Origin: Patescibacteria group bacterium UBA6532
GTDB lineage: Bacteria; Patescibacteriota; Minisyncoccia; Minisyncoccales; UBA6532
Assembly (NCBI GenBank): GCA_002434805.1
Contig: DJKW01000001.1
Span: 5,805-69,804, forward strand
DNA: 64,000 nucleotides
Reading direction: 5' to 3'
Below, one piece after another: positions 43,120 to 63,790 of this stretch. Numbering within the stretch: the first letter of the stretch is position 1; the number at the start of each line of letters is the position of its first letter. The notes under the pieces are model-generated. The model worked only from the letters and a program-made list of their open reading frames with translations. It searched no databases and was not told the DNA's origin. A program made the position numbers and the translations under genes.

Positions 43120-43195
43120 CTACCAAAAAATCGCCTGTCTGGCGATTAGTCTATTTGAAATAAAAAAAGCCCATTAATGAGCTTCTATGTTTTCT
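43120..43195 (-). promoter_or_regulatory. Conserved terminator/promoter module, copy A: CTACCAAAAAAYCGCC-N5-GGCGATT plus a distal hairpin
   Basis: It is one of at least 12 copies, analysed in the findings below. Confidence 0.55.
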
Positions 43196-43212
43196 TTTGA
43201 ATAAAAGAACTT

Positions 43213-43500
43213 TCACTTTGCTATCGATTTAATATATTCTTCTAAACTTTTTGATGTAGCGTCTTTGACCTTCTCTTCTGACTTTTTAATTATTTCTTTT
43301 ACTTCATCTTGATTTATATTAAATTCATTAGATATCTTTCTGATTACTTTATCATCATTCTGTTGATTCTTTTTAAGATTAATGAATTTCTTTGATATTT
43401 TGTATTCATCCTTTGTCAATAAAAATTCTCTTTTTTTGTTGTTTTTCCTCAATATAAATATACCTAGAGTTAATTTTACTAAACTGTAATTAAAAGTCAA
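43213..43500 (-). CDS. Lys-rich hypothetical protein with an apparent TTG start
   Basis: No recognisable domains. Confidence 0.35.
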   Translation of the reverse strand: MTFNYSLVKLTLGIFILRKNNKKREFLLTKDEYKISKKFINLKKNQQNDDKVIRKISNEFNINQDEVKEIIKKSEEKVKDATSKSLEEYIKSIAK

Positions 43501-43565
43501 ACCATTGTAGTAAAAAAACCGCCTAAAAGACGATTTTTAGATTACTCTGAGTTTAAAGTTCTTCT

Positions 43566-44585
43566 TTATTTGAATTTGGAAAAACTTTCGCCTTTATATA
43601 CATCGATTTCGTTATGAATTAAATCTTGTAAAACATTCCAGACTATAATACTGATGATCAATCTATTAATAACCATTAACTGTTCAGTAAAAAAGAGGAA
43701 AAATTGTGTTAAAAAAATAGAAATAAGCACTGCTGTTTTAAACATTAGATAAGCCCTTAAACGCCGACGAATTAGCATTAAAAAAATACCTAAAACAACA
43801 AATACTCCAGATCCAAAAAGTGATAATAAAAGGCCCCACCAATAAAAAGGCAATTCTGGTGTTCTTTCTCTAAACATTGCAGAAAAATTCAAGACAGTTA
43901 GAATGCTGAAAAAACCAATAATAGAAGTTGCAAAATACGGGTTTTTAGTAATTTTTAAATAATATTTCCTTTTAATGTTCTTTAATCTTGTAGTCAGCCG
44001 TTTTTTCTCAAAAGGCACCATCTTAATCTGTGTAATCGCATGTCTTAATGTTTGGACAATTGAATTATTTGAATCACTATCGTTTAAAAATTTAACTGCC
44101 AGTTTTTTTTCTTCTGAATCTAAGCCATTTAAAACGCCCTCTTTTATTAACTCAATGGCGTTTATGAGGCTTTCTTTCGCTGATATTCCCTTAGACTCAA
44201 TGAATAATCTCGATATTAAGTATATCAAAATAAGAATTACATAAATTAAAGCAATTGTTGGTTGAAAGAAATAATTATTATCATGGGTTATAAACTTGCC
44301 CAACTCATCAATAAAAATCCCGAATCCAATACCACTTATAACTGCAGCTACAAGTTTAATCTGACGATTAAGAAATGTAATCAGTCCAATTATGGCTATC
44401 GTCATTAAGAGTCCTCCCCATAACATATGCGCTATGTGAAGCGATTCTCCGCCAATTTGAATATAATTAACTAAATTCAAAAAAAATCGGATAAACAATA
44501 TAGCTGCAACTGCTGAAATTAAAAACAATTCTATATGATCTCCTGCTTCAACATTTCTAGTAAAATAGTTAAATTTAATTTTCAT
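43566..44585 (-). CDS. Multi-pass membrane protein (hypothetical)
   Basis: About 8 TM helices. No recognisable domains. Confidence 0.4.
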   Translation of the reverse strand: MKIKFNYFTRNVEAGDHIELFLISAVAAILFIRFFLNLVNYIQIGGESLHIAHMLWGGLLMTIAIIGLITFLNRQIKLVAAVISGIGFGIFIDELGKFITHDNNYFFQPTIALIYVILILIYLISRLFIESKGISAKESLINAIELIKEGVLNGLDSEEKKLAVKFLNDSDSNNSIVQTLRHAITQIKMVPFEKKRLTTRLKNIKRKYYLKITKNPYFATSIIGFFSILTVLNFSAMFRERTPELPFYWWGLLLSLFGSGVFVVLGIFLMLIRRRLRAYLMFKTAVLISIFLTQFFLFFTEQLMVINRLIISIIVWNVLQDLIHNEIDVYKGESFSKFK

Positions 44586-44619
44586 ATTTTGGTTATCTAA
44601 TTTTGAGTTAAAAATTTCT

Positions 44620-45747
44620 TTATTTTAAATATTTTTTCCCTTTTAATTTATCTGGTAATAAATCTTTTTCAGTATATTTATCATATCCTTTGCCATAATC
44701 CAATTCCTTCATAAGTTTCGTAGGCGCATTGCGCAAAGATAAAGGAATCGGCAAATTGCCATACTCTTTTACGTCTTCCATGGCAGCCATATAAGCATCG
44801 TAAGATGTTCTATTTTTCTTACATTTAGATAGATAAGCAACTCCGTGAGCTAGGTTTATACCGCATTCTGGCAACCCAATGGTTTCTACGGCCCTGAAGA
44901 CATCATTAGCTACTACTAAAGCTGTTGGATGAGCCAGTCCAATATCTTCTGAAGCGAAAATAACCATTCTTCTTGCTATAAACTTAGGATCTTCCCCAGC
45001 ATCAATCATTCTGGCTAAATAATATAAGGCAGCATCTGGCTGTGAAGCCCTCATACTTTTAATAAAAGCCGAAATAGTATTATAGTGCTCGTCTCCCTGT
45101 TTATCATATCTTAAAAACTTTGATTGAAGAGTATTTTTTAAATTCTCTATATTAATTTTATTATAAAGACGGGATGTATTCTCCAACATTGTAATAACTT
45201 GCCTTGCATCTCCATTTGCCATAGCAATTAACCAATCTTTTGATTCTTTATCCAGCTTAAACCCAGTTTGTTGAATAATAGCCAGCATTTCTTTGGCTGA
45301 AAGTTCATTTAAAACAAAAACTCTGCAGCGTGAGAGTAGGGCTGGAATTACTTCAAAGCTTGGATTTTCTGTAGTAGCTCCAATAAGAGTTATATCCCCT
45401 CTTTCTACAAACGGAAGTAAGAAATCTTGCTGAGATTTATTGAAACGGTGAATTTCATCTAAAAACAAAATTTTAGATTGGTTTTTAATCTCTTCAGCTA
45501 TTATTTTTCTAATATCCGCTTTTCCCGCTGAAACAGCAGAAAGATCATAAAAGCGGGCCTTTAAACTATTAGCATATATCCTCGCTAAGGTGGTTTTTCC
45601 CGTACCCGGAGGGCCCCAGAGAATAAAAGAAAACAAATGTTTTTGTTTTATGGCAATATTTAAAGGTTTTCCCTCCCCCACTAAATGTTCTTGCCCTACA
45701 AATCCTTTTAAGGTTTTTGGCCTTATTTTTGAGGCTAACGGTTCCAT
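44620..45747 (-). CDS. rarA: Replication-associated recombination protein A (AAA+ ATPase RarA/MgsA)
   Basis: GPPGTGKTTLA Walker A, RarA-type layout. Confidence 0.85.
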   Translation of the reverse strand: MEPLASKIRPKTLKGFVGQEHLVGEGKPLNIAIKQKHLFSFILWGPPGTGKTTLARIYANSLKARFYDLSAVSAGKADIRKIIAEEIKNQSKILFLDEIHRFNKSQQDFLLPFVERGDITLIGATTENPSFEVIPALLSRCRVFVLNELSAKEMLAIIQQTGFKLDKESKDWLIAMANGDARQVITMLENTSRLYNKINIENLKNTLQSKFLRYDKQGDEHYNTISAFIKSMRASQPDAALYYLARMIDAGEDPKFIARRMVIFASEDIGLAHPTALVVANDVFRAVETIGLPECGINLAHGVAYLSKCKKNRTSYDAYMAAMEDVKEYGNLPIPLSLRNAPTKLMKELDYGKGYDKYTEKDLLPDKLKGKKYLK

Positions 45748-45751
45748 TTAA

Positions 45752-46258
45752 TTATTCTACCCTTTCTTGGTTTTGGATTATTTCACTAAAATCACCTTCA
45801 ATAATATGGGCCTCTGGTGTGGCATCAATAACCGTCTCTTTGGTGATAACTACTCTGTAATATTCTGAAAAACTCCCTTCAGCATTATATTCAAGCAGCC
45901 AAATACCTGCTTGATTCTTTTTCATGACGCCGGTTGAGAAAAATTTTAAGGGGCTTGGTTGAACCAACCATCCCTCGTATTTAATTCCCTCTTGAGGATC
46001 TGGTAAAAAAGCTGTAACTACATGATATAATACACCGTCTTTAACAAGGCGGTAAGCAATTCCTGAAGAATCACTCTCATCTACAACCTTAAGCACTGCT
46101 GATTGAGTATTAATATCACTTGTGATTATAGTTAAGATACTTGGCTTTTCTTCTTCATTAAAAGACTCTTGGCCGCCAGGAAAAATACTGTCCCTAGCAA
46201 TAAAAATAATAATACCTAGAACAATAACTGAAACTATGATAATAATTACTTTTTTCAT
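45752..46258 (-). CDS. Membrane-anchored protein with an anti-sigma-K (RskA)-like C-terminal domain
   Basis: YEGWLVQPSPLKFFSTGV...GIWLL resembles the RskA C-domain pattern. Confidence 0.3.
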   Translation of the reverse strand: MKKVIIIIVSVIVLGIIIFIARDSIFPGGQESFNEEEKPSILTIITSDINTQSAVLKVVDESDSSGIAYRLVKDGVLYHVVTAFLPDPQEGIKYEGWLVQPSPLKFFSTGVMKKNQAGIWLLEYNAEGSFSEYYRVVITKETVIDATPEAHIIEGDFSEIIQNQERVE

Positions 46259-46323
46259 AATAAATTATATATTAATTATTATTTAAACCCTTATCCCGGT
46301 ATAGTTTTCCACGACTATTTACT

Positions 46324-47049
46324 TCACCTCTCGAGTTTGGGACCGGTAATATCAGCATCATGGCTATATCCCACGCCCTTATACGTTCCTTTATAATCAA
46401 TATCGTCAGATAATTCTATTTTTGTAAGCCACTTAATCCATTTGTAGCCCCACTTATTCTCTGACACGAGCTGAAAAGGAAAACCTCTTTCTGGCGGTAA
46501 AACTACGTCGTTAATTTTATAAGCAAGAATAATATCATTGTCTATTAAAAAATCTAAAGGTAAAGAAGTTGTGAAACCATCACTCGCATAAAAGATGACT
46601 GCTTTGGACTCAGGCTTAACACTAGCCTCTTCCAGAATATCCTTGATTAAGAATCCCTCCCATAAGATTTTTGCCCTCCAACCAGTAACGCAATTAAGTT
46701 CAACTACTTTTGAATATTTAGGGAAATTCAAAACCTCTTGGTAAGTGTATGCTTTTGGGGTATTTACAAGACCAGTAATTTCTAGCTTGTAATCTTTAAT
46801 ATCTATATATTGTGTGCCACTAATAGATGTTTCTTTTAAGTCAGCAATAGATGAAAGATTCTGGCCTTCATATTCCCTAACTTCTTTCTCTTGAAGTTTT
46901 CTAATACTCTCTGGCTGCCATGGATCACTATAAATAAACAATATGGTCGAGATAGCTAATATAAGAAAAATGAAATGCCATAGTTTAAAATGTGCACCAC
47001 CTAACCCTATTTTCCTATCTAAAAAATTTGTTACGTATCTTATCTTCAT
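46324..47049 (-). CDS. Sulfite-oxidase-family molybdopterin oxidoreductase domain protein (MsrP/YedY-like)
   Basis: VELNCVTGWRAKILWEGFLIKDIL and GFPFQLVSENKWGYKWIKWLTKIEL parallel E. coli MsrP CVEAWSMVVPWIGFPL and [25 protein letters not shown]. Confidence 0.65.
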   Translation of the reverse strand: MKIRYVTNFLDRKIGLGGAHFKLWHFIFLILAISTILFIYSDPWQPESIRKLQEKEVREYEGQNLSSIADLKETSISGTQYIDIKDYKLEITGLVNTPKAYTYQEVLNFPKYSKVVELNCVTGWRAKILWEGFLIKDILEEASVKPESKAVIFYASDGFTTSLPLDFLIDNDIILAYKINDVVLPPERGFPFQLVSENKWGYKWIKWLTKIELSDDIDYKGTYKGVGYSHDADITGPKLER

Positions 47050-47102
47050 TAATCTTGTCTGACGTTTAGAGAAAGTCAGATAAAGACTTCTCTAAACTTT
47101 GA

Positions 47103-47630
47103 TTATTTTATATATTTCTCAAGCAATTCAAAATCAATTTTATCAAAATGATCATTATCCTCAACTATTTTTAATTCGGCGTTAAGATATTTCGCCAAAT
47201 CTTTTCCATGTTGAAGTGGCACTACCGGATCTTCTGTTTGATTAAAAACTATAAACTTTTGGCATGATTTTTTAATCACTTCCCAATCAAAATCCGTTTC
47301 TAAAAAATTTTCGATTCCTTCATACCCAGAACCAAGTTTCTTTATTGGTGAAGCAATAAGGATGCACTTACCAACCTTTTCAGTTATTTCTTCTAGATAC
47401 CTAAGAATTGTTGGCCCACCTAAACTATACCCAATAAGTATTGATTCTTTATCTGGATGAAAGTTTTTTATAACCTGAACCCACTCTTCTTTTTGAGGAT
47501 GCAAGGTATTAGGCATATCAGGAACTACTACCTCATAACCTAATTTTTCCAACCTTTCTTTTTCTTCTAAAAACCAATGTTCTCTCGAGTTACTCTCCCA
47601 TCCATGAATTATTAAAACTCTTTTTCTCAT
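47103..47630 (-). CDS. Alpha/beta hydrolase of the YdeN/RBBP9 serine-hydrolase family
   Basis: VLIIHGWESNS...GYSLGG. Confidence 0.55.
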   Translation of the reverse strand: MRKRVLIIHGWESNSREHWFLEEKERLEKLGYEVVVPDMPNTLHPQKEEWVQVIKNFHPDKESILIGYSLGGPTILRYLEEITEKVGKCILIASPIKKLGSGYEGIENFLETDFDWEVIKKSCQKFIVFNQTEDPVVPLQHGKDLAKYLNAELKIVEDNDHFDKIDFELLEKYIK

Positions 47631-47648
47631 AATTTCTTTAACTTTTGA

Positions 47649-48167
47649 TTATTTTACTTTAGCGTAAAGATGAACGTCCATGAACCTATTGTTTTTCTTA
47701 TAGTGTTTCTTCATAATTCCTTCAAATTTATAACCGTTATTTTCTAAAACATGCATTGAAGCTTTATTAGAAGAAAAAACAGTAGCATAAATTCTTTTTA
47801 GTTTTAATTTCTTAAATCCGATCTTTGTTGCTAATTTTACAGCTTCTGCCATAATCCCTTGTCCCCAATATTTTTCAGCTAACCAATACCCTATCTCTGC
47901 TTTATGTCCTTTAATTTTGGAAAAGCCAATTGAACCAACTAATTCATCTTCAATATCAATAACAAAATTAATTTCTGATTTCTTTTTCTCTTTATTAAAT
48001 TTTAAATTACAACTAACCCAGAAATGAGCATCTTTCTTAGTATATGGATAAGGAATCCTTAAAGTATTACGATAAATCTTTTTATTATTTATATTCTTTC
48101 TTAAAGATGCTTCGTCTCCTCTTTTATACGGTCTTAATATAAACATTTTTGAACGAATAATCACCAT
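47649..48167 (-). CDS. GNAT-family N-acetyltransferase (RimJ/RimL-like)
   Basis: GNAT motif A region ...WGQGIMAEAV... and VFSSNKASMHVLENNGYKFEG. Confidence 0.75.
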   Translation of the reverse strand: MVIIRSKMFILRPYKRGDEASLRKNINNKKIYRNTLRIPYPYTKKDAHFWVSCNLKFNKEKKKSEINFVIDIEDELVGSIGFSKIKGHKAEIGYWLAEKYWGQGIMAEAVKLATKIGFKKLKLKRIYATVFSSNKASMHVLENNGYKFEGIMKKHYKKNNRFMDVHLYAKVK

Positions 48168-48176
48168 AAATTTTTA

Positions 48177-48428
48177 TTAATTCTTCTCATAAATTCTTTT
48201 CCACCAAAATTTCCCCTGCCAAAAACCAAATAAAACCCCAGCAATAAAAAGAACAACAGTTCCTATGTGATGGATTGTGAACCATTGAGACCACGAAAAA
48301 CCAAAGCTATATTTTGGGAAATTACCGATTAAAAAACCAATATACCAAGTTTCAACCAAACCGTGAATTAAGAGTTGAAGTAAAATACCTAAAAATGTGA
48401 ATAAAATTATATAAATTTTCTTTTTCAT
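48177..48428 (-). CDS. Small membrane protein (hypothetical)
   Basis: 83 aa with two TM helices. Confidence 0.35.
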   Translation of the reverse strand: MKKKIYIILFTFLGILLQLLIHGLVETWYIGFLIGNFPKYSFGFSWSQWFTIHHIGTVVLFIAGVLFGFWQGKFWWKRIYEKN

Positions 48429-48436
48429 TATTTCAT

Positions 48437-48550
48437 TCTACCAAAAAACCGCCTGTTTGATAAGACGGATTTTGCGTCGTCTAAGAAACGATATTCGAAC
48501 CTATTTTATTGGATAAAAAAAGCCGTGAGTTAAGTAACACACGGTCTTTG
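48437..48550 (-). promoter_or_regulatory. Conserved terminator/promoter module, copy C
   Basis: CTACCAAAAAACCGCC..., the core CGTCGTCTAAGAAACGATATTCGAACCTATTTTATTGGATAAAAAAAGCC, and the hairpin CCGTG..CACGG. Confidence 0.55.
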
Positions 48551-48562
48551 GGCAATAATGAA

Positions 48563-49036
48563 CTAACTTTTTTTAAGGCTTGATTCTATTCTTTTACCGT
48601 TATAGTCAATATGGAAGAATTTAGTATCTTTTCTTGCTCTAGCTAATCCTTCGTAGAAATCCATTACAAGCTCATATCTCTCTTCATAGGCAGGTTTTCC
48701 GTTGTGGTCAATATGGAAGCCTTTGCTGTAATTGTCTATACTTACTCGAGCTAATCCTTCGTAGAAGTTACCTACATCATCGTATCTCTCTTTATAGGCA
48801 GGTTTTCCATTATGGTTGATGTGGAAGTATTCATTACCTTTTTTTACCTGAGCTAATCCTTCGTAGAAGTTACCTACATCATCGTATCTCTCTTTATAGG
48901 CAGGTTTTCCATTATGGTTGATGTGAAATCGTTTATTGTCTTTGCTTACTCGAGCTAATCCTTCGTAGAAAAAATTAGCTATACAGTCATAACCGAATTT
49001 CTTTTCTATCTTTTTTATATCTTCTTCGTTAATCAT
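48563..49036 (-). CDS. WG/KWG-like tandem-repeat protein, with four ~30-aa repeats FHINHNGKPAYKERYDDVGNFYEGLARV
   Basis: It shows both protein repeats and near-identical ~75-bp DNA repeats at 48757-48830 and 48847-48920. Confidence 0.5.
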   Translation of the reverse strand: MINEEDIKKIEKKFGYDCIANFFYEGLARVSKDNKRFHINHNGKPAYKERYDDVGNFYEGLAQVKKGNEYFHINHNGKPAYKERYDDVGNFYEGLARVSIDNYSKGFHIDHNGKPAYEERYELVMDFYEGLARARKDTKFFHIDYNGKRIESSLKKS

Positions 49037-49084
49037 TCTTATCGCGCCTATTATTACATTATATTATTAATTTGTCAAGACTCT

Positions 49085-49183
49085 TTACTAAAAAACCGCC
49101 TTTATGGCGATTTTGTCTCGCAATCTATAATGTCCGTCCTGGAATAAAAAAAGCCGTTAGTCTTTTTTATACTAACGGTCTTG
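49085..49183 (-). promoter_or_regulatory. Conserved module, copy D, followed by a TTGACA-N17-AATAAT promoter at 49037-49084
   Basis: Read directly from the sequence. Confidence 0.5.
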
Positions 49184-49206
49184 ATATTGGTACGTACAAT
49201 GTATTA

Positions 49207-49482
49207 TTACGTAATAATTATCTTCGAATGTATATTCTCATATCTTGATTCTTCAAACTTTATGCGCCACCCAACGCTTTCGTAGATTAATTTGAGCACT
49301 TCTCTAACATTTTCTTCCGGAAAAGGATCAGCATTTATTGATATTCTTCCTTTAGCTTCCAGAACAAATGATGCATTATCTTCATTAATCACTGAATCAA
49401 TTTTTTTTTCCAACTTATTAAGTATTATTAATTGTCCAACATCAAGAGCTTTCTTAAGGAAAGTTTCCTTTCTGACAACCAT
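49207..49482 (-). CDS. Hypothetical protein
   Basis: 91 aa with no recognisable domain. Confidence 0.35.
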   Translation of the reverse strand: MVVRKETFLKKALDVGQLIILNKLEKKIDSVINEDNASFVLEAKGRISINADPFPEENVREVLKLIYESVGWRIKFEESRYENIHSKIIIT

Positions 49483-49570
49483 ATTATTTCAACAGTATTG
49501 TAGTATAAATAATTAAGATAATCAAGTTATAAAGCCAAATCCTTAGGGACACAGCTCCTTTTTTTTATTT

Positions 49571-49640
49571 CAGGTCCGACAACGTAACTTGAACGACGTT
49601 AGAACCTATTTGGAATAAAAAAGCCCTAAAAGGGCTTAAT
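49571..49640 (-). promoter_or_regulatory. Conserved module, copy E, with the core CGACGTTAGAACCTATTTGGAATAAAAAAGCCC-hairpin
   Basis: Read directly from the sequence. Confidence 0.5.
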
Positions 49641-49670
49641 GAAAAGTAATAAGAAATTATAGAAATAGCT

Positions 49671-49925: not shown

Positions 49926-49955
49926 TTGAATTTCATATTAGTAGATAATGAAAGT

Positions 49956-50040
49956 TTATCAATCAAAAAATCGCCTGTATGGCAATTAACCTGTTTGGGA
50001 TAAAAAAGAGTGTCAGATCTTTAAAGAAATGACACTATAC
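49956..50040 (-). promoter_or_regulatory. Conserved module, copy F
   Basis: AAAAAATCGCCTGTATGGC...CCTGTTTGGGATAAAAAAGAGTGTCA-hairpin. Confidence 0.5.
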
Positions 50041-50050
50041 TGAGGCAATA

Positions 50051-51127: not shown

Positions 51128-51221
51128 CCTTATTCCTCTTTATTTTATAAAAAACTTAATATTTTATCAAACAAAAAAACCGCCATAGAGGAGGTTCTTT
51201 GTTATCTTAAACAGATAATGT

Positions 51222-52391: not shown

Positions 52392-52445
52392 AAATTAAAG
52401 TAATTTATTAATTCTTTTCTCGACCTTTATTATTGTAACATATTC

Positions 52446-53414: not shown

Positions 53415-53415
53415 A

Positions 53416-56418: not shown

Positions 56419-57247
56419 CTTTTTTGTTCTTTAGAGGAATATTGTCTTTTTCCGGACAAACATCTAAATATTCGCAGTAAGAACACAATCTATTGATTTT
56501 AGGCAAAAGAGCAGTATCGCTTTTAGCTTCTTTAATGACATTGATAACCTTCTTCTCAAGCCCTTTTATTTTCTCTTTATTCCAAACAATGTCATAAACT
56601 TTGGAATACTTAAGGTAAATCAAGCCAGCCCTGATTTTTTCGGCAAAGGGATTAAGGTACGAGGCGATGATGGCGTAAAAAGGAATCTGAAGGTCTTCTT
56701 CTATTATTTTCTCAACGCTGCTTTTATAAGGCAGCTTGCCTGTTTTATAATCCCAAATAGAAATGGCTGAATCCGAATCCTTGTCGATTCTGTCTATCCT
56801 TCCAGCTATCTTAAAACCGTTAATATCGCACTCCATCCAATCTTCCAAGGATAAGGGAACAATTGATAAATCAGCTTTCCTTAGATAATTACTCAGCATG
56901 CCGATAGCGCCTATCCCGAAAGCCCTTTCCTGTTCCAGAGAACCGAATAGCTCTCTTCTCTCCTGAGCTGACCAATACTCATTACTCCGATTGTCTTTAG
57001 GCATCCTCGCCCAAGCATGCCTAACCATAGACCTTAAATCCTCTTCTTTTCTTTTATTTATAGGAACCTTTTTAATATCAAAAAAATCATTGAGCACGCT
57101 GTGAATAACGCTGCCGACAAAGCTTTGGGGGGTTTCAATGAATACGGCTTTAATATCCTTATCATTATGGCACTTGAACTTAAAAGGACACCTTAAATAG
57201 TGGTTTAAAGCGCTAGGGAATATTTTTTCTGGGAATATGTAAGCCAT
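56399..57247 (-). CDS. Cas4/AddB-like PD-(D/E)XK nuclease with four Cys (putative Fe-S cluster)
   Basis: RCPFKFKC near the N-terminus, IWDYKTGK catalytic lysine motif, and a C-terminal CSYCEYLDVC. Confidence 0.65.
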   Translation of the reverse strand: MAYIFPEKIFPSALNHYLRCPFKFKCHNDKDIKAVFIETPQSFVGSVIHSVLNDFFDIKKVPINKRKEEDLRSMVRHAWARMPKDNRSNEYWSAQERRELFGSLEQERAFGIGAIGMLSNYLRKADLSIVPLSLEDWMECDINGFKIAGRIDRIDKDSDSAISIWDYKTGKLPYKSSVEKIIEEDLQIPFYAIIASYLNPFAEKIRAGLIYLKYSKVYDIVWNKEKIKGLEKKVINVIKEAKSDTALLPKINRLCSYCEYLDVCPEKDNIPLKNKKVDEVDW

Positions 57248-57255
57248 ATTCCTTA

Positions 57256-57352
57256 TTCTACCAAAAAACCGCCTTTTGGGCGATTGAGTCAGTAAACGAC
57301 GTTAAAACCTGTTCGGGATAAAAAAAGAACCAGGCGAGTTTCCTGGTCTATT
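57256..57352 (-). promoter_or_regulatory. Conserved module, copy H, with tandem hairpins each followed by a U-tract
   Basis: CTACCAAAAAACCGCCTTTTGGGCGATT...CGACGTTAAAACCTGTTCGGGATAAAAAAAGAACCAGG-CGAGTTT-CCTGGTCT. Confidence 0.55.
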
Positions 57353-57523
57353 TATATTTAAACTCTAAGAGTATTTTTTTCTCACACGGCTGGCAAATAT
57401 GATATTTCATTACTTTTGATGGTATTTCCACTGTATCTGGATGTGTGAACAAAATTGCTCATGGTTTTTTCTCGACATCAAAATGATCGCCGCATCTATT
57501 ACATCTCGGTATATTCATCTCAC

Positions 57524-57847
57524 CTACCTTTCAAAATATCGGTCTGATATAGAAAAACCATTTTTAGGATTGAATGGTTTAATGAAACATTCAACCAACG
57601 ATGGTTCTGGAAAGAACTCCCTTGTTATTTTTACTAACTCTATTGCAAGACGATTCCTTACTTCTTCCGTCCTTTCTGGTTTAATGAAAATTTCTGCCTC
57701 AATGATAATTTCACTTCCTAACCCTTTCTTCATCATGTCTGGAGGAAAGAATACTGAAACTTGCGTTGATTTTATTTCTAATTCTTTAATCGCCGCAGTT
57801 TTCTCCATAAGCCTGTCTGTAAACTTCCCTAATTTCTCTTCTGTCAC
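57524..57847 (-). CDS. Hypothetical soluble protein
   Basis: I prefer it over the antisense ORF 57441-57866 because its composition looks globular. Confidence 0.45.
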   Translation of the reverse strand: MTEEKLGKFTDRLMEKTAAIKELEIKSTQVSVFFPPDMMKKGLGSEIIIEAEIFIKPERTEEVRNRLAIELVKITREFFPEPSLVECFIKPFNPKNGFSISDRYFER

Positions 57848-58151
57848 ATCAACCGGTATTCCATAAACTGTGATTATAGGTATTTCAATCTTCTCCTAAG
57901 TTTTACCTTATAAAGATATTAATAATTTGTCAACCAAAAAACCGCTAAAGAGACGACTTTAGAGATATCTTACCAATGCGTCTTGACCGGGGTAGTTACC
58001 GCTTGACCTTTTTTTAATAATGTGTATAATGATAATAAGCTTATAAGTCGAGTTGTCTTAAAGTAAGTCTTTAGTAATAAAGATCCCAAATAAGTAGAGC
58101 GACTTAGGAGTTAAAAAGGTCGCTTTTTTAATTCGTAATTAGTAAAATAAT

Positions 58152-58331
58152 ATGGCTTTTAATGAATCTGGTTCCGACAGAGGATTTCCAAGAAAAATGT
58201 ATCAAGGAAATTGGAAATGTTCTGAGTGCGGAAAAGAAATAACAGAGCTTCCATTTGAGCCCTCTGGCGACAGACCTCTTTATTGTAGGGACTGCCACGC
58301 TAAGAGGAGACCTCAAAGATTCGGACGCTAA
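58152..58331 (+). CDS. 59-aa zinc-ribbon protein of the CxxC-x17/18-CxxC type (WKCSECGKEITELPFEPSGDRPLYCRDCH)
   Basis: It is unlisted in the track because it is under 60 aa. It has a strong terminator downstream. Confidence 0.55.
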   Translation: MAFNESGSDRGFPRKMYQGNWKCSECGKEITELPFEPSGDRPLYCRDCHAKRRPQRFGR

Positions 58332-58344
58332 TTAAAACAAACCT

Positions 58345-58374
58345 CCCCCGCATTATTGCGGGGGTTTTGTTTTG
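58345..58374 (+). terminator. Rho-independent terminator
   Basis: CCCCCGC-ATTATT-GCGGGGG followed by TTTTGTTTT. Confidence 0.7.
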
Positions 58375-58459
58375 ATTAAAAGAAAATTTTAGCTTGCAAA
58401 AAAATCAAATTTATGTTTTATAAGGAGTAGATGTTTTACAATTTGGAGGAAAGAATATT

Positions 58460-59425
58460 ATGGAGATTAGTTTTTTAAAAACTCGCTGCACTCATTGTGG
58501 TAAAACAAAAATGGTAGAAGATGCCGTCTCTGGCGAAATCACTTGTAAAAATTGTGGCTTTGTAATCAAAGAAAAGAAAGAAGAAACAGGTCCTGAATGG
58601 AGAGAATTTCCAGAAGAAAAGAATACAAAAAGCCGTGTCGGTCTTCCATCCTCACTTGCTGACTACGACCAATGGTTAACAACAGACATCGGAAAAGGAG
58701 AAAAAGATGCATTCGGCAAATTTCTTCCTTCAGGATCACAAACACTTATAAGACGGCTAATAACATGGGATGAAAGAAGTAAGCTTCGCGAGCCAGGGAA
58801 AAGAAATTTAATACAAGCCTTTCAATACCTTAGTCGGCTAAAAGACAAGCTTAACCTCAGTGATGCAATAACAGAGAAAGCCGCATATATATACCGAAAA
58901 GCATTGGAACGAGGAATCATTAGAGGAAGATCAATTGAGCTTGTTATAACAGCTTCCCTCTACGCTGCCTGTAGAGAGACTACTACGCCGCGTACATTGA
59001 AAGATTTTTCGGAAGCCGCTAATATCCAAAGAAAAGGTCTGACACGATCATACCGTCTCTTACACAAAGAACTAGATTTAAGAGTACCTGTAGTTACCCC
59101 TGACAGGTTTATTCCAAGAATTGCCAATGCTTGTAGGGTAAGTGAAAAAACTAAGCGCCAAGCATTAGAGATTTTAAAAAAAGCAGTGGAGGAAAGAATA
59201 AGTGCTGGAAAAGATCCAACAGGCCTAGCTGCTGCTGCACTCTATTTAGCTTGTGTACTTACAGGAGAAAGCGTAACCCAAAAAGAGATTGCGGAGGCCG
59301 CTGGAGTTACAGAAGTAACAGTTAGAAACCGATATAAAGATTTAAGAAAAAATCTATCAGATATTCAAAAAATACTAAAATTACCAGAGCAAAATAATAA
59401 ATTCTGGTTGTCCCAAAGATGGTAA
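58460..59425 (+). CDS. Archaeal/eukaryotic-type transcription initiation factor IIB (TFB) homolog, full length
   Basis: N-terminal zinc ribbon CTHCG-x15-CKNCG, B-reader GPEWREF, and two cyclin-fold repeats with RGIIRGRSIE, ASLYAACRE, PRTLKD, GLTRSYR, GKDPTGLAAAALYLA and TQKEIAEAAGVTEVTVRNRYKDL. Each matches archaeal TFB almost residue for residue. Confidence 0.85.
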   Translation: MEISFLKTRCTHCGKTKMVEDAVSGEITCKNCGFVIKEKKEETGPEWREFPEEKNTKSRVGLPSSLADYDQWLTTDIGKGEKDAFGKFLPSGSQTLIRRLITWDERSKLREPGKRNLIQAFQYLSRLKDKLNLSDAITEKAAYIYRKALERGIIRGRSIELVITASLYAACRETTTPRTLKDFSEAANIQRKGLTRSYRLLHKELDLRVPVVTPDRFIPRIANACRVSEKTKRQALEILKKAVEERISAGKDPTGLAAAALYLACVLTGESVTQKEIAEAAGVTEVTVRNRYKDLRKNLSDIQKILKLPEQNNKFWLSQRW

Positions 59426-59529
59426 TCTAAAAGATTACCTCTTTTTTTATAAAAACATCTCTGCCAGTCGCAGGCGGAGAGCTTGCTTTGGTGGATAAAA
59501 AAAGTTCTCTTTTTAGACTGAAGAGAACC

Positions 59530-59817
59530 TTAAATAGTGTATTCTATTACTCTATTTTTATCATCCAGAGTTTCTTTTTCAAGTGGCACTCTGGTAAGTA
59601 AAAGTCTGAGTAATTTGAGTGAACTTAAGATATTATTGGTTAGAAAAACTTCAACTGTTCTATCTAGAACTCTCTCTAACTGTTCCTGTAAAAAAACAGA
59701 TGTTTCACTTGTATCAACTATGACATATCGCTCCCTTAAAATACGTCTTTGAAGAGAATCTATTTTTTCTTGAATTTCTTTAAGTTCTTTCAGTGAATAT
59801 TCATCAGATTCAATCAT
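59530..59817 (-). CDS. Hypothetical coiled-coil protein
   Basis: 95 aa. Confidence 0.35.
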   Translation of the reverse strand: MIESDEYSLKELKEIQEKIDSLQRRILRERYVIVDTSETSVFLQEQLERVLDRTVEVFLTNNILSSLKLLRLLLTRVPLEKETLDDKNRVIEYTI

Positions 59818-59857
59818 TTTTTATCACTTTTAAAAGATATCAATTTATTAAAAGTTT

Positions 59858-59935
59858 GTCAATAAAAAAATGCCTGTTTGACGAATAAAAAATGGCGAAT
59901 TAGTTTCCTAAAACGCCCTTAATTTTTTGATAGTT
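59858..59935 (-). promoter_or_regulatory. Conserved module, copy J, with a TTGACA-N17 promoter
   Basis: Read directly from the sequence. Confidence 0.45.
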
Positions 59936-59937
59936 GA

Positions 59938-60153
59938 TTAGTCAGATGGTTGGATATCAGATTTCTCGAAACCACAGTTTGAACATACAAGTTTCCCTGG
60001 TTTTCCTTTATTCAAGAAAGATGCACATTTTGGACAACGAGCATATTCGCTTACTTTATTTAATGTTTCTATTAATCCATATTTATCATCTTTTTCTTCA
60101 TTATCATCAGGCTTAATACTGATTACTTGCATTTTATTTTTTTTATTTTCCAA
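59938..60153 (-). CDS. Zinc-ribbon protein (CPKC-x15-CSNC)
   Basis: 71 aa with an acidic N-terminus and a C-terminal 4-Cys ribbon. Confidence 0.5.
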   Translation of the reverse strand: MENKKNKMQVISIKPDDNEEKDDKYGLIETLNKVSEYARCPKCASFLNKGKPGKLVCSNCGFEKSDIQPSD

Positions 60154-60209
60154 AGAACTTTTCTCCTTGAATAAAGATATAACTATCTTCCTAGAAAGTC
60201 AAATTCTTT

Positions 60210-60275
60210 ACTAAAAAATCGCCTTCCTGGCGACAAGCAGTTGCGGGACCTAGATGACCTTAGAACTATATTTCA
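60210..60275 (-). promoter_or_regulatory. Conserved module, copy K
   Basis: AAAAAATCGCCTTCCTGGCGA...AGTTGCGGGACCTAGATGACCTTAGAAC. Confidence 0.5.
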
Positions 60276-60582
60276 ATATCAAACCAAATACACTTACCTA
60301 CCAAAACTTTCCCGTTTTACTAATCACTTTTATCAATTATTTATTTTACCCCAAAAATTACTAAAATAGTGATTTTTTAGATAGGTAAAAAATTAATTTG
60401 CTAAATAAAATAAAGCAAATAAATAAATCAACAAAGCAACCCTTACTTTTTTATAGAAGACTTTTTGATTGATACCACTTTTCTCCACTTAGCCAACATT
60501 GTAGGATTTGAGGAACATATTCTGCAACTAATAGGAGCTACTTTCTTTTTTAAAGTATTTTTTTTCATAATTTATAAAGAAA

Positions 60583-60831
60583 TTAAATCTTTAATTCTCG
60601 ACCTTTATCTTTTAATAAGATATCATAATAAAGCAAATTCCACAAGGGATACAAGCAAGTATCTCCTTTCTGTAATGAATTTAAAATTTTATCTTTTTCT
60701 ATTGCTCCTTTATTTTTGGCAGATTCCCTCTTAAACCACTTTGATGTTTTTTTATCAACAATATAAATAGCATCTCCTAAATATAGATAATCAACACCTT
60801 TACCTTTTTTAATTTGGACAACAATACGCAT
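60583..60831 (-). CDS. Hypothetical small protein immediately downstream of the radical-SAM pair
   Basis: 82 aa. Confidence 0.4.
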   Translation of the reverse strand: MRIVVQIKKGKGVDYLYLGDAIYIVDKKTSKWFKRESAKNKGAIEKDKILNSLQKGDTCLYPLWNLLYYDILLKDKGRELKI

Positions 60832-60858
60832 ATTTGGTTCTTTATTTATTATAGCAAT

Positions 60859-61854
60859 TTAAATATCGCAACTAAAATCTTCTCCATGAATATCTCCTTT
60901 GGTATACGCTATAGCCCTGCATCCTCCACATATATACTTAAACCGACAAGACTTGCATTTTCCTCTTAGGTTTTCTTTAAAGAATATATTTGTTTTTTTA
61001 ATTTTTTTTAAAATGTTTTCTAGGGAATCAGAGTATAAATTTCCTAGTCTATAAGGAATATAAGCACATGGATAGATGTCTAAATTAGGTTTAACGTAAA
61101 AATTTGCTATTCCCGCAAGACATCCGGCAAACATCTCACCGTTATATATATTACCATACTCCTTTAGTTTTTCTATATATTTTTGATTAAATAAATTAAT
61201 CTTAGGATTATCTGTTGTAATGCCAATTTTATATTTTTCAGATAATGTGTAAATTTTATTAAATAATTCTTTATCCGAAACCTTATTTTTTTCCCAAAAA
61301 GAGTAATTTTTTCCAGAGGGAAGAATATTTTGTAACGCGATACGTTTAAATTTTTTTTTGTCTAAAAACCCAATTAAATCCTCTAAATACCCGATGTTCT
61401 CTTTTTGCACAACACATTTAAAAATCACGTTTCCGCCACCTGATTTAAGCCTTAAAGCGTTTTCTATTATTTTATCAAAAATACCCGCAATGCCCCTGAT
61501 CTTTTCATGAATCTTTTTGGGACCATCAATACTTATTTGTATAAGATCAATTTTAGACTTTAATAAATTATTCAAAACCGAATTATTAAATATCCCATTA
61601 GTTGTTATTGCCCTAAATAAACCTTGTTTTTTCGTAATATAGAGCAAGTCAAAAATATCATCTCTTAATGTTGGTTCTCCGCCTGAAAAATTAATTTCTT
61701 TAAAACCTAACTTTTTAGCATTTTCTATAATTTTTTTAAGTTTACGAAAATCCGGCTCTATTTGTCCCTTATTAATAGCCTCTCTTACGCAATGCTGACA
61801 CCGCAAATTACATCTGTTAGTTATATCTATTTGTAATACCTGATATTTTTGCAT
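60859..61854 (-). CDS. Radical SAM enzyme with a C-terminal SPASM/twitch Cys-rich domain
   Basis: CNLRCQHC (CxxxCxxC), and a C-terminal GCLAG...CAYIP...CKSC...CGGC...C cluster. Confidence 0.8.
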   Translation of the reverse strand: MQKYQVLQIDITNRCNLRCQHCVREAINKGQIEPDFRKLKKIIENAKKLGFKEINFSGGEPTLRDDIFDLLYITKKQGLFRAITTNGIFNNSVLNNLLKSKIDLIQISIDGPKKIHEKIRGIAGIFDKIIENALRLKSGGGNVIFKCVVQKENIGYLEDLIGFLDKKKFKRIALQNILPSGKNYSFWEKNKVSDKELFNKIYTLSEKYKIGITTDNPKINLFNQKYIEKLKEYGNIYNGEMFAGCLAGIANFYVKPNLDIYPCAYIPYRLGNLYSDSLENILKKIKKTNIFFKENLRGKCKSCRFKYICGGCRAIAYTKGDIHGEDFSCDI

Positions 61855-61858
61855 AAAT

Positions 61859-62911
61859 TTATTTATTCAAAAATGCACAGTATGGATCACAAGAATATAT
61901 ATCGCCAGTTAAGTGATATGTATCACAAGGACATCCTCCAAAACAAATGTCATAGTATTTGCAATCTGTTTTAATCAACTTTTTCCTCTTGTGTTTCCAT
62001 TCTAAACCAGTTTTTGAATTCCAAATTTCTTTAAGGGAGTTTTTATACACATTTCCCATTACAAATATATCATCAAAACCATATGGGCAATGTGTTACTC
62101 TTCCATCGGGCCATATGAAGCAACTATATTCTCCACAAGGACAGCCAAAATTATGCGTTATAATAGATTTTTCAATTTCTTTTGCAGATTCTTTAATTTC
62201 TGAAGCATTGTTTCTTTTCTGTATCAAACATTCAATTTTATTTACTTCGGCAATATCCAATATCTTACTATAAATCCTATTAAGGTTTTTATCTTTAATA
62301 AATAATTTATTATAATTAATTAACCCCTGACCTGTAGGATGAAATAAACCAGCCGAAAAAAAAGTTTTTATTTTTTGCTTACCTATATACTTTAAAAAAA
62401 TTAAAATATCCTGATAATTTATTTTTGTTATAGTAGTAGTGAATATGAACGGAAGCTCGTATTCTATGCCCAAACGAATATTCTTTTTTAGTTTCTCAAA
62501 ATTATTCTTGTTAGTTCTACAAAATCTTTTTAATATTTTTTCAGAAAATCCATGGATGCTAATATCAATATGAGACACTCTCAGTTTTGCTAGTTCTTTT
62601 ATGATTGCTTTATCAAGAACAGTAAAATTAGTATTTAAATGTATCCGCATCTTTTTTCTTTCGGCATATCTTAATACCTCCATTATACGTCCATTTTGGT
62701 ATAAAAAAGGTTCGCCACCCGTTATGTTGAGATTATAAACCCTGTTAGCTTCCATCTCATCTATAATATTTTTCACTGTTTCAATATTCAAATCTTTATT
62801 TATCCCTCGATCAACAACACAACAATGCATACAATTAAAGTTGCATTTATCGGTAATTATAATTGAGACCTCTAGAGGAAATATTTGTCTTTTCCATTTA
62901 ATTTTCTGCAT
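61859..62911 (-). CDS. Radical SAM enzyme with a C-terminal SPASM domain
   Basis: CNFNCMHC, and a C-terminal GCPCGEYSC...HCPY...CKYYDICFGGCPCD...CDPYC. Confidence 0.8.
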   Translation of the reverse strand: MQKIKWKRQIFPLEVSIIITDKCNFNCMHCCVVDRGINKDLNIETVKNIIDEMEANRVYNLNITGGEPFLYQNGRIMEVLRYAERKKMRIHLNTNFTVLDKAIIKELAKLRVSHIDISIHGFSEKILKRFCRTNKNNFEKLKKNIRLGIEYELPFIFTTTITKINYQDILIFLKYIGKQKIKTFFSAGLFHPTGQGLINYNKLFIKDKNLNRIYSKILDIAEVNKIECLIQKRNNASEIKESAKEIEKSIITHNFGCPCGEYSCFIWPDGRVTHCPYGFDDIFVMGNVYKNSLKEIWNSKTGLEWKHKRKKLIKTDCKYYDICFGGCPCDTYHLTGDIYSCDPYCAFLNK

Positions 62912-62921
62912 ATTTGAATTT

Positions 62922-63227
62922 TTAATTTATTATAAAATAATCGTTCCTATATGTTTCTGAAAGATATTTCGTTCTATTTGTGTTAATTAAACCAATAACT
63001 TTATATCTCCCCTTTTCTCTATTGCCCACATTATATTTTCTAAAATAATCAGAATTACTTTGGGGTTTGCATTTAAAACTAAACAAAAAAGATTTAACCA
63101 ACTCATTTGTGGGAGAAAAAATCAAAATTTCTATAATCCCCTTCAAGGTATTATTTCTTCTATTAGAAACTCTTAAATGAATGGTTATATCTTTATTTTT
63201 TGAAACTTTCCTAGGATATATACTCAT
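62922..63227 (-). CDS. Hypothetical 101-aa protein 10 nt upstream of the radical-SAM pair (candidate substrate or partner)
   Basis: Position only. Confidence 0.4.
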   Translation of the reverse strand: MSIYPRKVSKNKDITIHLRVSNRRNNTLKGIIEILIFSPTNELVKSFLFSFKCKPQSNSDYFRKYNVGNREKGRYKVIGLINTNRTKYLSETYRNDYFIIN

Positions 63228-63326
63228 ATTTATTGTTTTACCTTTTTTCTATCTATAATGGGCTTACTCTGAACAGGCTTGACGTAAAACGGAGAACGCG
63301 TCACGTGGACGACGTTATAAGCGGTT

Positions 63327-63668
63327 TTACTTAGGTTTCTTCTTAAATTTATATGTGTAAGCAAAAACTGGCGTATTATTGTTAATCTTATAGGCAGGAT
63401 TATGACGCCTAAATGCTTTTATAAGTTCCTGTCTGTTTTTATATGTTTTATAGTGAGTTTTATCCTTTAGGTCTATCTGTCCGACAGTTGTTATAATAAC
63501 TTTTGTTATTTTTCCGAATCCAAAAATTTCTTCTGTCTGGCTATTTTCAAAAGCCACAACATCGCCTTTTTTTAACTTATGGTCTCTGAGTCTCCAGGTA
63601 CTTATTTTCCCATCAAAAACCTGTGGGACAATACTCTCGTGAAACCCCATTTTTGGCAAATTTTTCAT
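63327..63668 (-). CDS. ASCH/PUA-like small protein
   Basis: GFHESIVPQVFDGKISTWRLRDHKLKKGDVVAFEN...FGFGKITKV resembles the ASCH beta-barrel pattern. Confidence 0.4.
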   Translation of the reverse strand: MKNLPKMGFHESIVPQVFDGKISTWRLRDHKLKKGDVVAFENSQTEEIFGFGKITKVIITTVGQIDLKDKTHYKTYKNRQELIKAFRRHNPAYKINNNTPVFAYTYKFKKKPK

Positions 63669-63676
63669 ATCTTTAT

Positions 63677-63790
63677 CCTACCAAAAAACCGCCTTCTTGG
63701 CGATAAATAGTTGCGGGTCGTGGACGATATTAGAACCTGTTTTTGCTTAAATGAATAAAAAAAGGTTCTTTCTGAGAACATCTTTTTTGG
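63677..63790 (-). promoter_or_regulatory. Conserved module, copy L, the most complete example
   Basis: CTACCAAAAAACCGCCTTCTTGGCGATAAATAGTTGCGGGTCGTGGACGATATTAGAACCTGTTTTTGC...AAAAAAAGGTTCT-TTCTG-AGAACATCTTTTTT. Confidence 0.55.

Follow-up and report, generated by a model that had tools for sequence, protein, structure and literature searches.

A repeated intergenic module in a Patescibacteria genome probably combines a terminator-promoter junction with leftover attachment sites of a tRNA-targeting serine recombinase

A repeated intergenic module was analyzed in a 64,000-nucleotide stretch of contig DJKW01000001.1 (positions 5,805 to 69,804; here called the window) of Patescibacteria group bacterium UBA6532, in which a first-pass annotation had listed 12 copies between 43120 and 63790. 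The module is probably a composite, formed by a terminator-promoter junction of the Patescibacteria (Candidate Phyla Radiation, CPR) together with the leftover attachment site of a large serine recombinase (LSR), and the run of modules probably marks an island of captured accessory genes anchored at a tRNA-Gln(CUG) gene.

The proposed explanation divides the module into four layers. The first, a variable hairpin, would be the upstream gene's own intrinsic terminator. The second, present in about half of the copies, would be a 28–33-nt box left as the scar of a site-specific integration. LSRs with Resolvase, Recombinase and Zn-ribbon domains would insert mobile DNA into the 3' ends of tRNA-Gln and tRNA-Asn genes, using an attP site situated inside the 3' end of the recombinase gene, the P arm of which would imitate the T-arm and acceptor of the tRNA. 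On integration the recombinase gene would come to abut the tRNA, at attL, and the last approximately 33 recombinase codons, i.e. the P arm, would stay at the far junction attR, fused to the DNA found natively behind the tRNA. Because attP lies inside the 3' end of the integrase gene, integration would replace the last approximately 33 residues of the integrase by residues encoded by the reverse complement of the tRNA. The third layer, the hairpin AATCGCC-N5-GGCGR-U6, would be an RNA terminator that stands natively behind tRNA-Gln/Asn and many other genes of Patescibacteria, and the fourth, an extended -10 box (TGnTAGAAT) abutting the hairpin 6–7 nt before the ATG, would yield a leaderless mRNA.

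Repeated sequence was found at all 12 listed positions, on the minus strand and ahead of minus-strand genes, and two copies had been missed, one on the plus strand at 22662–22728 and a partial box at 63290–63323. The pattern ATCGCCN5GGCGRTTTTT, with at most one mismatch, matched the window eight times, while 0.01 matches were expected from 100 shuffles, and nine of the 11 minus-strand matches of GGCGRTTTTT fell in the region 43–64 kb. Terminator-like sites were three-fold enriched in the window (32 vs 10.4 ± 3.2 expected), and the repeat families D2, D3 and D5 link the copies. The hairpins of ten of the 12 copies folded at -7.2 to -10.6 kcal/mol, those at 57929 (-4 kcal/mol) and 59858 (-1.3 kcal/mol) being degenerate.

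The module is a mosaic and not one four-part unit. All four parts, which the first-pass annotation had ascribed to each copy, were present together at 63677, 57256 and 48437, and the remaining nine copies lack one or more of them. Copy 43120 includes the upstream terminator, the conserved hairpin and the -10 box, the 28–33-nt box having been deleted. The copies at 49085, 49956, 60210, 43508, 51165, 57929 and 59858 include the hairpin, in some of them decayed, followed by a separate TTGACA/TTGATA-N16-17-TAnAAT promoter in place of GGTAGAAT. Copy 49571 has the box, with neither the conserved hairpin nor GGTAGAAT. The box, GGTTCTAAYRTCGTCC with a 12-nt tail, is represented by one intact and five decayed copies in the window and by two further intact copies just past its end. 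The box profile (nhmmer) gave one strong match in the window, at 63741 (E 1.8e-5), and two weak ones, at 49610 (E 0.085) and 48505 (E 0.98); the boxes at 57286–57315, 60240–60270 and 63290–63323 were recognised by eye only.

Outside the window the 33-nt profile was applied to L001, a locus that overlaps the window and runs past its end (L001 10380–14188 corresponds to approximately 59480–63289 of the window), and to 822 kb of CPR loci. Altogether 99 copies were found in about 0.9 Mb, window included, some of them in co-oriented arrays with seven copies in 8 kb (L115) or at least five copies (L052 and L013). The 12-nt tails of 72 copies were mostly tRNA-like, 27 ending in the Gln-like CAGC/CAGT/CAAC and 31 in the Asn-like GAGC/GAGT (58 of 72 together). 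In other genomes the box often starts 0–15 nt past the upstream stop codon. On the opposite strand the 99 copies read L-x-x-x-DD[VIF]RT, and sub-families run on for a constant 23–36 aa to a stop; the antisense reading frames of several sub-families show conservative substitutions. A profile search with these tails gave 179 cluster representatives, nearly all of them orphan open reading frames (ORFs) of 32–144 aa with unrelated N-termini.

The link to recombinases is provided by the protein P0107, which has a recombinase Zn-ribbon and coiled coil and the C-terminus ...NWLAGWDDFRTADW...LLQI followed by the stop. Its homologues (669 proteins at E ≤ 1e-20) carry PF07508 and PF13408, as confirmed on P0166, and those of full length (485–527 aa) also PF00239 Resolvase; the hosts are Patescibacteria, Chloroflexota and Omnitrophica. 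After ...SRQxW-L most members read P(R/G/E)xDSN(H/L/Q)..., i.e. the translated reverse complement of a real tRNA T-arm, and a minority, among them P0107, P0157 and P0246, keep the DDFRT-type, or attP-type, tail. The P0168 gene overlaps the 3' end of a tRNA-Gln(ctg) convergently (L254/L255) and the P0160 gene that of a tRNA-Asn(gtt) (L256). In a Patescibacteria metagenome-assembled genome (MAG) the P0298 gene ends on a tRNA-Asn 3' end, and the element carries HTH_17, a methyltransferase and a ResIII helicase. Read as its reverse complement, the conserved Trp codon gives CCA, which places the crossover at the tRNA 3' terminus.

The local box is identical to the local tRNA-Gln 3' end in 20 of 23 positions, or 35 of 38 with the trailer, the only gap, of 5 nt, falling between GGTTCNAA and the acceptor-like part of the box. 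In the attB of serine integrases, the motif recognised by the Zn-ribbon domain (ZD) stands 5 bp closer to the crossover than its attP counterpart (Rutherford et al. 2013, PMC3783163). By sequence comparison the offset between box and tRNA-Gln is this published attP/attB half-site offset, and the box is best identified as the P arm of the attP of LSR elements, consisting of the last integrase codons and left at attR on the native tRNA flank. Of the features characteristic of an attR relic, the P-arm homology, the LSR domains (in other genomes), the tRNA target with abutting copies and the motif shifted by 5 bp were all found.

The array is headed by an intact tRNA-Gln(CUG; anticodon ctg) at L001 7986–8057, approximately 1.6 kb past the window end (at about 65.6 kb). 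The advice in the first-pass annotation to look beyond 64 kb was thus apt, and no integrase was found there. The tRNA is followed by single-gene units with the cupin, HAD-hydrolase and hemerythrin genes and the 113-aa gene of the window, and each of the four units ends in the box GGTTCTAAYATCGTCCACGACCCGCAAC. A perfect 23-nt direct repeat, CCCGCAACAAATTAAGTTCAAAA, lies on both sides of the cupin gene, formed by the tRNA-Gln 3' end and trailer on one side and the first box on the other. Three neighbouring boxes are nearly identical, with unrelated flanks. The same layout, a tRNA-Gln followed by a co-oriented box array, is present in L115 and L041.

Strain contigs differed at module boundaries. 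L003 and L005 are without 3.8 kb (approximately 59480–63289 of the window), including two radical-SAM/SPASM genes (60859–62911), possibly a peptide-modification cluster, and small ORFs; the left junction falls directly after the partial box 63290–63323, and a 6-bp TCTCCG repeat is found at both ends. L010 has a different upstream gene and is 100% identical to the window from the AGGCGG 3' arm of the hairpin (about 49101) onward. In the relative L080, with an Xer-like recombinase 77% identical, the 83-aa gene has the same GGTAGAAT promoter with another hairpin type and other neighbours. The contexts of the cupin gene in four genomes did not include a constant cassette of gene and box.

The hairpin and the -10 box had a different distribution. 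The scan of one genome per species with GGCGRTTTTTTGRTAGRAT found the two together at no fewer than 120 loci, almost all in Patescibacteria MAGs of many classes, where they precede functionally unrelated genes. In 137 oriented sites the 5' arm was most often AATCGCC (63), AGTCGCC (12) or TATCGCC (7), and the loop was nearly always of 5 nt and A-rich. Hairpins lay less than 150 nt downstream of a co-oriented tRNA, mostly tRNA-Asn or tRNA-Gln, in 13 of 146 cases (about 0.75 expected). In some lineages other stems substitute for the hairpin with the pairing kept, and downstream of boxes elsewhere its sequence may differ, the architecture being constant. A second hairpin type, CCGYCT-TATCAGTTA-GGCGG (e.g. 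48443–48471), was also present.

The non-Watson-Crick pairs of the stem were nearly all G·U in the gene-sense strand (pair 5, 75 T·G vs 42 T-A; pair 6, 16 G·T), with only eight true mismatches and no C·A; because of this the stem is regarded as an RNA hairpin and not as a symmetric DNA site. In the sense strand the GC-rich stem-loop is directly followed by a U-tract, as in intrinsic terminators, and ten of the 12 copies fold at or below -7 kcal/mol. In five window copies TGn and TAnAAT are followed by a start codon 6–7 nt downstream, with no Shine-Dalgarno sequence. The distance from the end of TAGAAT to the ATG was 6–7 nt where the first-pass annotation had given 8–12 nt, and among the 100 of the 137 sites with an ATG in range it was 6 nt in 38, 7 nt in 13 and 8 nt in 11. 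Such spacing would be expected of a leaderless mRNA, whose transcription begins at the start codon. Extended -10 and leaderless promoters of this kind are found in Actinobacteria and Deinococcus. Terminator and promoter activity can accordingly be predicted for the junction from its sequence. The 5'-arm T is never C, even opposite G, and exactly 17 nt separate the arm's hexamer TCGCCA from the TAGAAT downstream; in the second hairpin type the loop places TTATCA at the same distance. Terminator and promoter would thus overlap, with an arm or loop hexamer at a -35-like distance, and because of this overlap the 5-nt loop and the T6 length would be fixed. The overlap geometry may be what conserves the hairpin sequence.

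The data support the hairpin and -10 box as a lineage-wide terminator and leaderless-promoter junction generic to Patescibacteria and not confined to 43–64 kb, and the earlier suggestion of a lineage-specific terminator-promoter cassette holds for these two parts, including the plus-strand copy at 22.7 kb. The junction shares the GC stem of 5–7 bp and the following U-tract with intrinsic terminators, and the TGn-TAnAAT 6–7 nt before the start codon and the missing Shine-Dalgarno sequence with leaderless promoters. Unlike in ordinary terminators and promoters, the two signals are fused in one unit of about 40 nt with near-fixed sequence and geometry throughout the phylum.

It is quite unlikely that the whole module is only such an ordinary junction, in which the compact intergenic regions of CPR genomes need a hairpin, a T-run and a -10 box and the 28–33-nt box is AT-rich spacer. 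The phylum-wide motif before unrelated genes, its occurrence on both strands, the boxless copies and the variable hairpins behind boxes elsewhere all fit this explanation, but a specific 33-nt sequence with 99 profile matches would not be expected of spacer DNA, nor would homology to LSR C-termini at the protein level or tRNA-Gln/Asn-type tails with an exact 5-nt offset from the tRNA. The explanation is refuted for the box and essentially accepted for the hairpin and -10 box; the first-pass annotation had noted that a motif upstream of most genes irrespective of region would be generic, and for these two parts such a distribution was found in part. Its suggestion of a regulon, with the dyad AATCGCC-N5-GGCGATT bound by a dimeric regulator that co-controls the downstream genes, was abandoned as highly improbable. 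The dyad is near-perfect in some copies, its position over the -35 region is fixed, and its 5' arm is invariant even where a wobble results. However, the 75 T·G and 16 G·T wobbles of the sense strand are C·A mismatches on the other strand, the T-run after the dyad is obligatory, the dyad is found behind tRNA genes, the genes downstream of it are of unrelated function across the phylum, and other stems, with the pairing kept, replace the dyad in some lineages. A role of the box as RNA, either as a tRNA-like 3' untranslated element (processing, stability, CCA-tagging) or through a small antisense protein, is very unlikely. The box mimics the T-loop and the 3' strand of the acceptor, is often close to the upstream stop codon in other genomes and is covered by ORFs of 32–71 aa predicted by gene callers. 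It has, however, no 5' acceptor strand or T-stem partner, so that no minihelix is possible, and Rfam, at both gathering and E ≤ 10 thresholds, returned no family matching the module. The N-termini of the antisense ORFs are unrelated, a start codon is often missing, the homology begins exactly at the crossover point, and the similarity to the tRNA reaches 15 nt into the trailer, which points to descent at the DNA level.

Alternatively, the boxes could be live sites of an integron-like cassette system, in which integrase-less single-gene units are cut out and reinserted in trans, at boxes or tRNA genes, by a recombinase encoded elsewhere in the genome. This is rather doubtful, as is the proposal that the boxes are working sites of a serine-recombinase, tRNA-mimicking gene-capture system widespread in Patescibacteria. 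The box and native tRNA trailer would then serve as a renewable pseudo-attB, and single-gene units, each with a terminator and a leaderless promoter of its own, would be stacked, reordered or removed in trans. The units between boxes are indeed single accessory genes of 0.3–1.6 kb in co-oriented arrays of several genomes, adjacent boxes are nearly identical between unrelated flanks, strain breakpoints fall at module boundaries, and the box with its trailer resembles attB; the 33-nt core has been kept while the rest of the recombinase tail decayed, which suggests selection on the half-site. Against this, no recombinase was found near any array, the only local one being an Xer-like tyrosine recombinase (25287–26243) at least 17 kb from the nearest module, inspection of the array-head region found no P' arm adjoining the head tRNA-Gln, the cupin gene is sometimes found unlinked to a box, and no circular junctions were observed. 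Furthermore, a directionality factor is normally required for attR-type sites to react (PMC3783163). The box sites may still be active, and the local copies are most likely relics.

The composite of junction and attachment-site relics, with an array that would have arisen by serial integration and decay, is the explanation preferred here, and several observations weigh against it. About half of the 12 copies are without any box, and some of the boxless modules adjoin housekeeping genes (AddAB-like nuclease/helicase, Obg, DsbB-like). A recombinase gene is missing in and beside the locus: tblastn searches of the window, of L001 (10 kb past the window) and of 120 CPR loci with the motif found neither an LSR gene nor a fragment of one, and the local array is on these grounds considered integrase-less. 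The codon-position test on the antisense tails gave a weak third-position excess, and the identity of the box is decided by the long LSR homologues and not by this test. The box tails of L115 and L041 do not match the 3' end of the tRNA heading the array, and in three other genomes the box on the 3' side of the cupin gene is not always there. The local cupin unit is flanked by attB-like and attR-like repeats and not by the attL/attR pair of a simple LSR insertion. Neither attL nor attR is a partner of attP for serine integrases, so that tandem insertion in series needs an extra assumption, and tandem growth would require either the box and native trailer as a pseudo-attB or later deletions. 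The 3.8-kb indel, with only the 6-bp TCTCCG repeat, could be due to ordinary illegitimate recombination, and the overlap of terminator and promoter explains the strong conservation of the hairpin 5' arm only tentatively.

Other known elements were also considered. As regards an integron, no IntI was found within 10 kb past the array head, and the box is without the internal inverted repeat of the attC fold (R''/R', L''/L', GTTRRRY); by inspection, pairing of TTCTAAC with GGTAGAA is present only in copies with GGTAGAAT and is asymmetric. The copy boundaries differ between copies and show no terminal inverted repeats or target-site duplications, as a miniature inverted-repeat transposable element (MITE) would have. 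The GTAG of repetitive extragenic palindromic (REP) repeats is part of the -10 box and absent from seven copies. On inspection, dyad symmetry or the defining motifs were missing for a dif/Xer-like 28-bp site, attC, REP/GTAG and boxA. The array is neither an operator regulon nor an integron nor a REP/MITE family. The boundary sites of a cassette-type array, suggested in the first-pass annotation, stand for the box as an LSR attachment relic and fall in the sense of an integron. As a tRNA pseudogene or minihelix the box was rejected because ARAGORN found none at the boxes and there is no partner strand. Pfam had no match for the antisense peptides of the boxes, and clustering of the ORFs upstream of boxes gave no recurrent protein family. 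A metagenome scan with TCGTCCACGACCCGCAAC returned 119 loci, of which 114 were GC-rich chance matches, and a scan of viral contigs with the box core three matches, two in a DNA-methyltransferase gene (chance) and one at a contig end. The literature searched yielded no account of the motif or of LSRs integrating at CPR tRNA genes.

The closest parallels are found among elements that use tRNA genes. In SSV-type archaeal integrases the attP reportedly lies inside the integrase gene, matches the 3' part of a tRNA and partitions the gene on integration, and trapped DNA with integrase fragments is said to build up beside archaeal tRNA genes. These are reportedly tyrosine recombinases of archaea split near the N-terminus, whereas here a serine recombinase of bacteria (CPR, Chloroflexota, Omnitrophica) is clipped at the C-terminus. 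In the tycheposon islands of Prochlorococcus, accessory genes are said to be stacked behind a tRNA, punctuated by tRNA-3'-end-like repeats, with presence or absence varying among strains; the recombinases are reportedly tyrosine recombinases and the repeats true tRNA ends. The present array likewise belongs to a marine, small-genome bacterium and has accessory genes behind a tRNA with strain-level presence and absence, but its repeats derive from a serine recombinase gene and are attP-type mimics offset by 5 nt, and its units are often single genes. With integron arrays and clusters of attC sites lacking integron-integrases (CALINs; Cury et al. 2016, PMC4889954) it shares co-oriented small accessory genes with a site-like element near the stop codon and, as in CALINs, an array that can be without an integrase. 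Unlike in integrons, the site is conserved in sequence and not in structure, every unit comes with a promoter and a terminator of its own, and the anchor is a tRNA and not attI. The recombinases resemble the A118/LI, Bxb1 and phiC31 integrases in having Resolvase, Recombinase and Zn-ribbon/coiled-coil domains (PMC3783163). As in phage LSRs, the half-site measures approximately 25–30 bp, the distal motif of the P half-site is displaced outward by 5 bp relative to that of the B half-site, and the insert ends, at its far side, in a hybrid attR. In contrast to phage LSRs, these enzymes target tRNA-Gln or tRNA-Asn 3' ends and not a protein-coding gene, attP lies within the integrase's own 3' coding end, and the window holds only relics, in arrays and with no integrase.

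Table 1. Parts of the module copies and related features in the window.
Feature	Position	Strand	Remarks
Copy D (63677), variable hairpin, probable terminator of the upstream gene	63757..63788	-	AAAAAAGATGTTCT..AGAACC + T7; from the sequence
Copy D, intact box, putative P half-site/recombinase 3'-end relic	63710..63742	-	AAACAGGTTCTAATATCGTCCACGACCCGCAAC; nhmmer E 1.8e-5; opposite strand translates LRVVDDIRTCFCLNE and stop; 20/23 identical to tRNA-Gln 3' end, one 5-nt gap
Copy D, conserved predicted terminator hairpin	63683..63706	-	TTATCGCC-AAGAA-GGCGG-T6; -7.8 kcal/mol
Copy D, putative extended -10	63666..63683	-	TGGTAGGAT, 6 nt, ATG of 113-aa gene; leaderless spacing
Partial box	63290..63323	-	CGCTTATAACGTCGTCCACGTGACGCGT then TCTCCG; left junction of the 3.8-kb strain polymorphism
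Copy E (60210), decayed box	60240..60270	-	retains AGTTCTAA + tail GTCCCGCAAC; under nhmmer threshold
Copy E, hairpin	60213..60236	-	TTGTCGCC-AGGAA-GGCGA-T6; then TTGACT-N17-TATCTT promoter 60174–60202
Copy M (59858), decayed hairpin and promoter	59834..59883	-	CGTCAAACAGGCA-T7 + TTGACA-N17; -1.3 kcal/mol
Copy L (57929), decayed hairpin and promoter	57905..57960	-	..GTCGTCTCTTTAGCGG-T6 + TTGACA; -4 kcal/mol
Copy C (57256), upstream terminator	57320..57348	-	GACCAGG..CCTGGTTC-T7
Copy C, box	57286..57315	-	5' part intact (CGAACAGGTTTTAACGTCGT), tail lost
Copy C, hairpin and -10	57245..57285	-	AATCGCC-CAAAA-GGCGG-T6, TGGTAGAAT, 7 nt, ATG; start codon opens PD-(D/E)XK nuclease / UvrD-helicase / Obg operon
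Copy K (51165), imperfect hairpin and promoter	51142..51196	-	AACCTCC..GGCGG-T7 + TTGATA-N17-TAAAAT
Copy B (49956), upstream terminator, cut box and promoter	49935..50035	-	box cut to ATCCCAAACAGGTT; TTGATA promoter
Copy B, hairpin	49965–49987	-	AATTGCC-ATACA-GGCGA-T6
Copy H (49571), upstream terminator and box	49579..49637	-	terminator 49617–49637; box AAATAGGTTCTAACGTCGTTC... 49579–49611; no conserved hairpin; nhmmer E 0.085
Copy G (49085), upstream terminator and promoter	49050..49180	-	TTGACA-N17-AATAAT
Copy G, hairpin	49090–49114	-	AAAATCGCC-ATAAA-GGCGG-T6; L010 haplotype diverges at AGGCGG arm (~49101)
Copy F (48437), upstream terminator and decayed box	48426..48546	-	terminator 48515–48546; box 48474–48506
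Copy F, type-2 hairpin	48443–48471	-	CCGTCT-TATCAAAC-AGGCGG-T6; loop gives TTATCA 17 nt before TAGAAT
Copy F, -10 downstream of hairpin	within 48426..48546	-	TGGTAGAAT, 6 nt, ATG
Copy J (43508), hairpin and promoter	43473..43538	-	AAAAATCGTC-TTTTA-GGCGG-T7 + TTGACT-N16-TAAAAT
Copy A (43120), upstream terminator	43108..43186	-	terminator 43162–43186; box deleted
Copy A, hairpin and -10	43108..43186	-	AATCGCC-AGACA-GGCGA-T6 (43125–43147), TGGTAGAAT, 6 nt, ATG
Extra copy, terminator and hairpin	22662..22728	+	GGGGTAC..GTACCCC; AATCGCC-AATCA-GGCGG-T6
Extra copy, -10 after hairpin	22662..22728	+	TGATAGAAT, 6 nt, ATG of + strand gene at 22726

The window has a G+C content of 34.6% and bacterial sigma-70-type promoters, and its gene products include FtsZ, Obg, RarA, an AddAB-like nuclease/helicase and a DsbB-like protein. 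Exact protein matches were found in contig NYZL01000050.1 of the marine MAG GCA_002687125.1 and near-identical contigs in Tara Oceans assemblies; the relatives, found by later scans, all belong to the Patescibacteria.

Some further observations were made on sequences near the modules and tRNA genes. Behind tRNA-Asn/Gln genes, and behind boxes as well, stands a second T-arm-like motif, GCTAGTGCTCGGTTCGAGCGACCGAG(NN)GCA (L018, L029, L047, L095, L102, L105, L112, L114), which may be part of the native attB flank. At about 10790–11080 of L257, a tRNA-Asn beside an integrated serine recombinase seems to be split by an intron-like insert of about 270 nt, for which ARAGORN makes no call. A motif of the 5' untranslated region, AAAGGTCGCAA(T)AAATAAAAA, occurs 10–20 nt after the -10 box in L001 (8058–8151), L068, L130 and many motif loci, and precedes, for example, cupin genes 77–80% identical across distant CPR genomes. 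Upstream of the 157-aa gene, the alternative haplotype L010 (1–1417) encodes a secreted-looking protein of 431 aa.

The 321-aa ORF at 58460–59425 (+) has Zn_Ribbon_TF and TFIIB Pfam domains, of the archaeal/eukaryotic transcription factor B type, in a bacterial CPR genome; it sits inside the variable island, with alleles of 304, 321 and 335 aa among the strain contigs. The 157-aa protein at 48563–49036 (-) consists of KWG-like repeats of about 34 aa (FYEGLA..NG-KPAY), reflected in DNA tandem repeats of 102–108 nt. The motif AATGTCGCACAA is common to the intergenic regions 16470–16649 (+) and 26244–26361 (-), the latter directly upstream of the Xer-like recombinase gene. At 404–616 (+), a long inverted repeat, GGTTGACCCCGCACCTAATCT ... 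AGATTAGGTGCGGGGTTGACA, surrounds about 70 nt just upstream of a promoter-like TTGACA...TATAAT. Past the window end, a release-factor gene (PCRF/RF-1 domain; L001 5195–6383) is called complete in some strain contigs and uncalled in L001, which is consistent with the usual prfB programmed frameshift or a calling artefact.

The composite of junction and attachment-site relics would explain in concrete terms where an abundant, conserved intergenic motif of the Patescibacteria comes from. The LSR family would be unusual in targeting tRNA-Gln and tRNA-Asn, in carrying attP within its own 3' end and in mimicking the tRNA with a 5-bp half-site offset, and genome sequences directly reveal its att pairs, an advantage in the discovery of integrase tools. 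The junction offers a portable terminator and leaderless-promoter unit for CPR genetics. If the boxes were working sites, they would be a functional analogue of the integron built on a different recombinase class and anchored at tRNA-Gln/Asn. The finding points to the flanks of tRNA-Gln/Asn genes as main hot spots of gene acquisition in these reduced, episymbiotic genomes.

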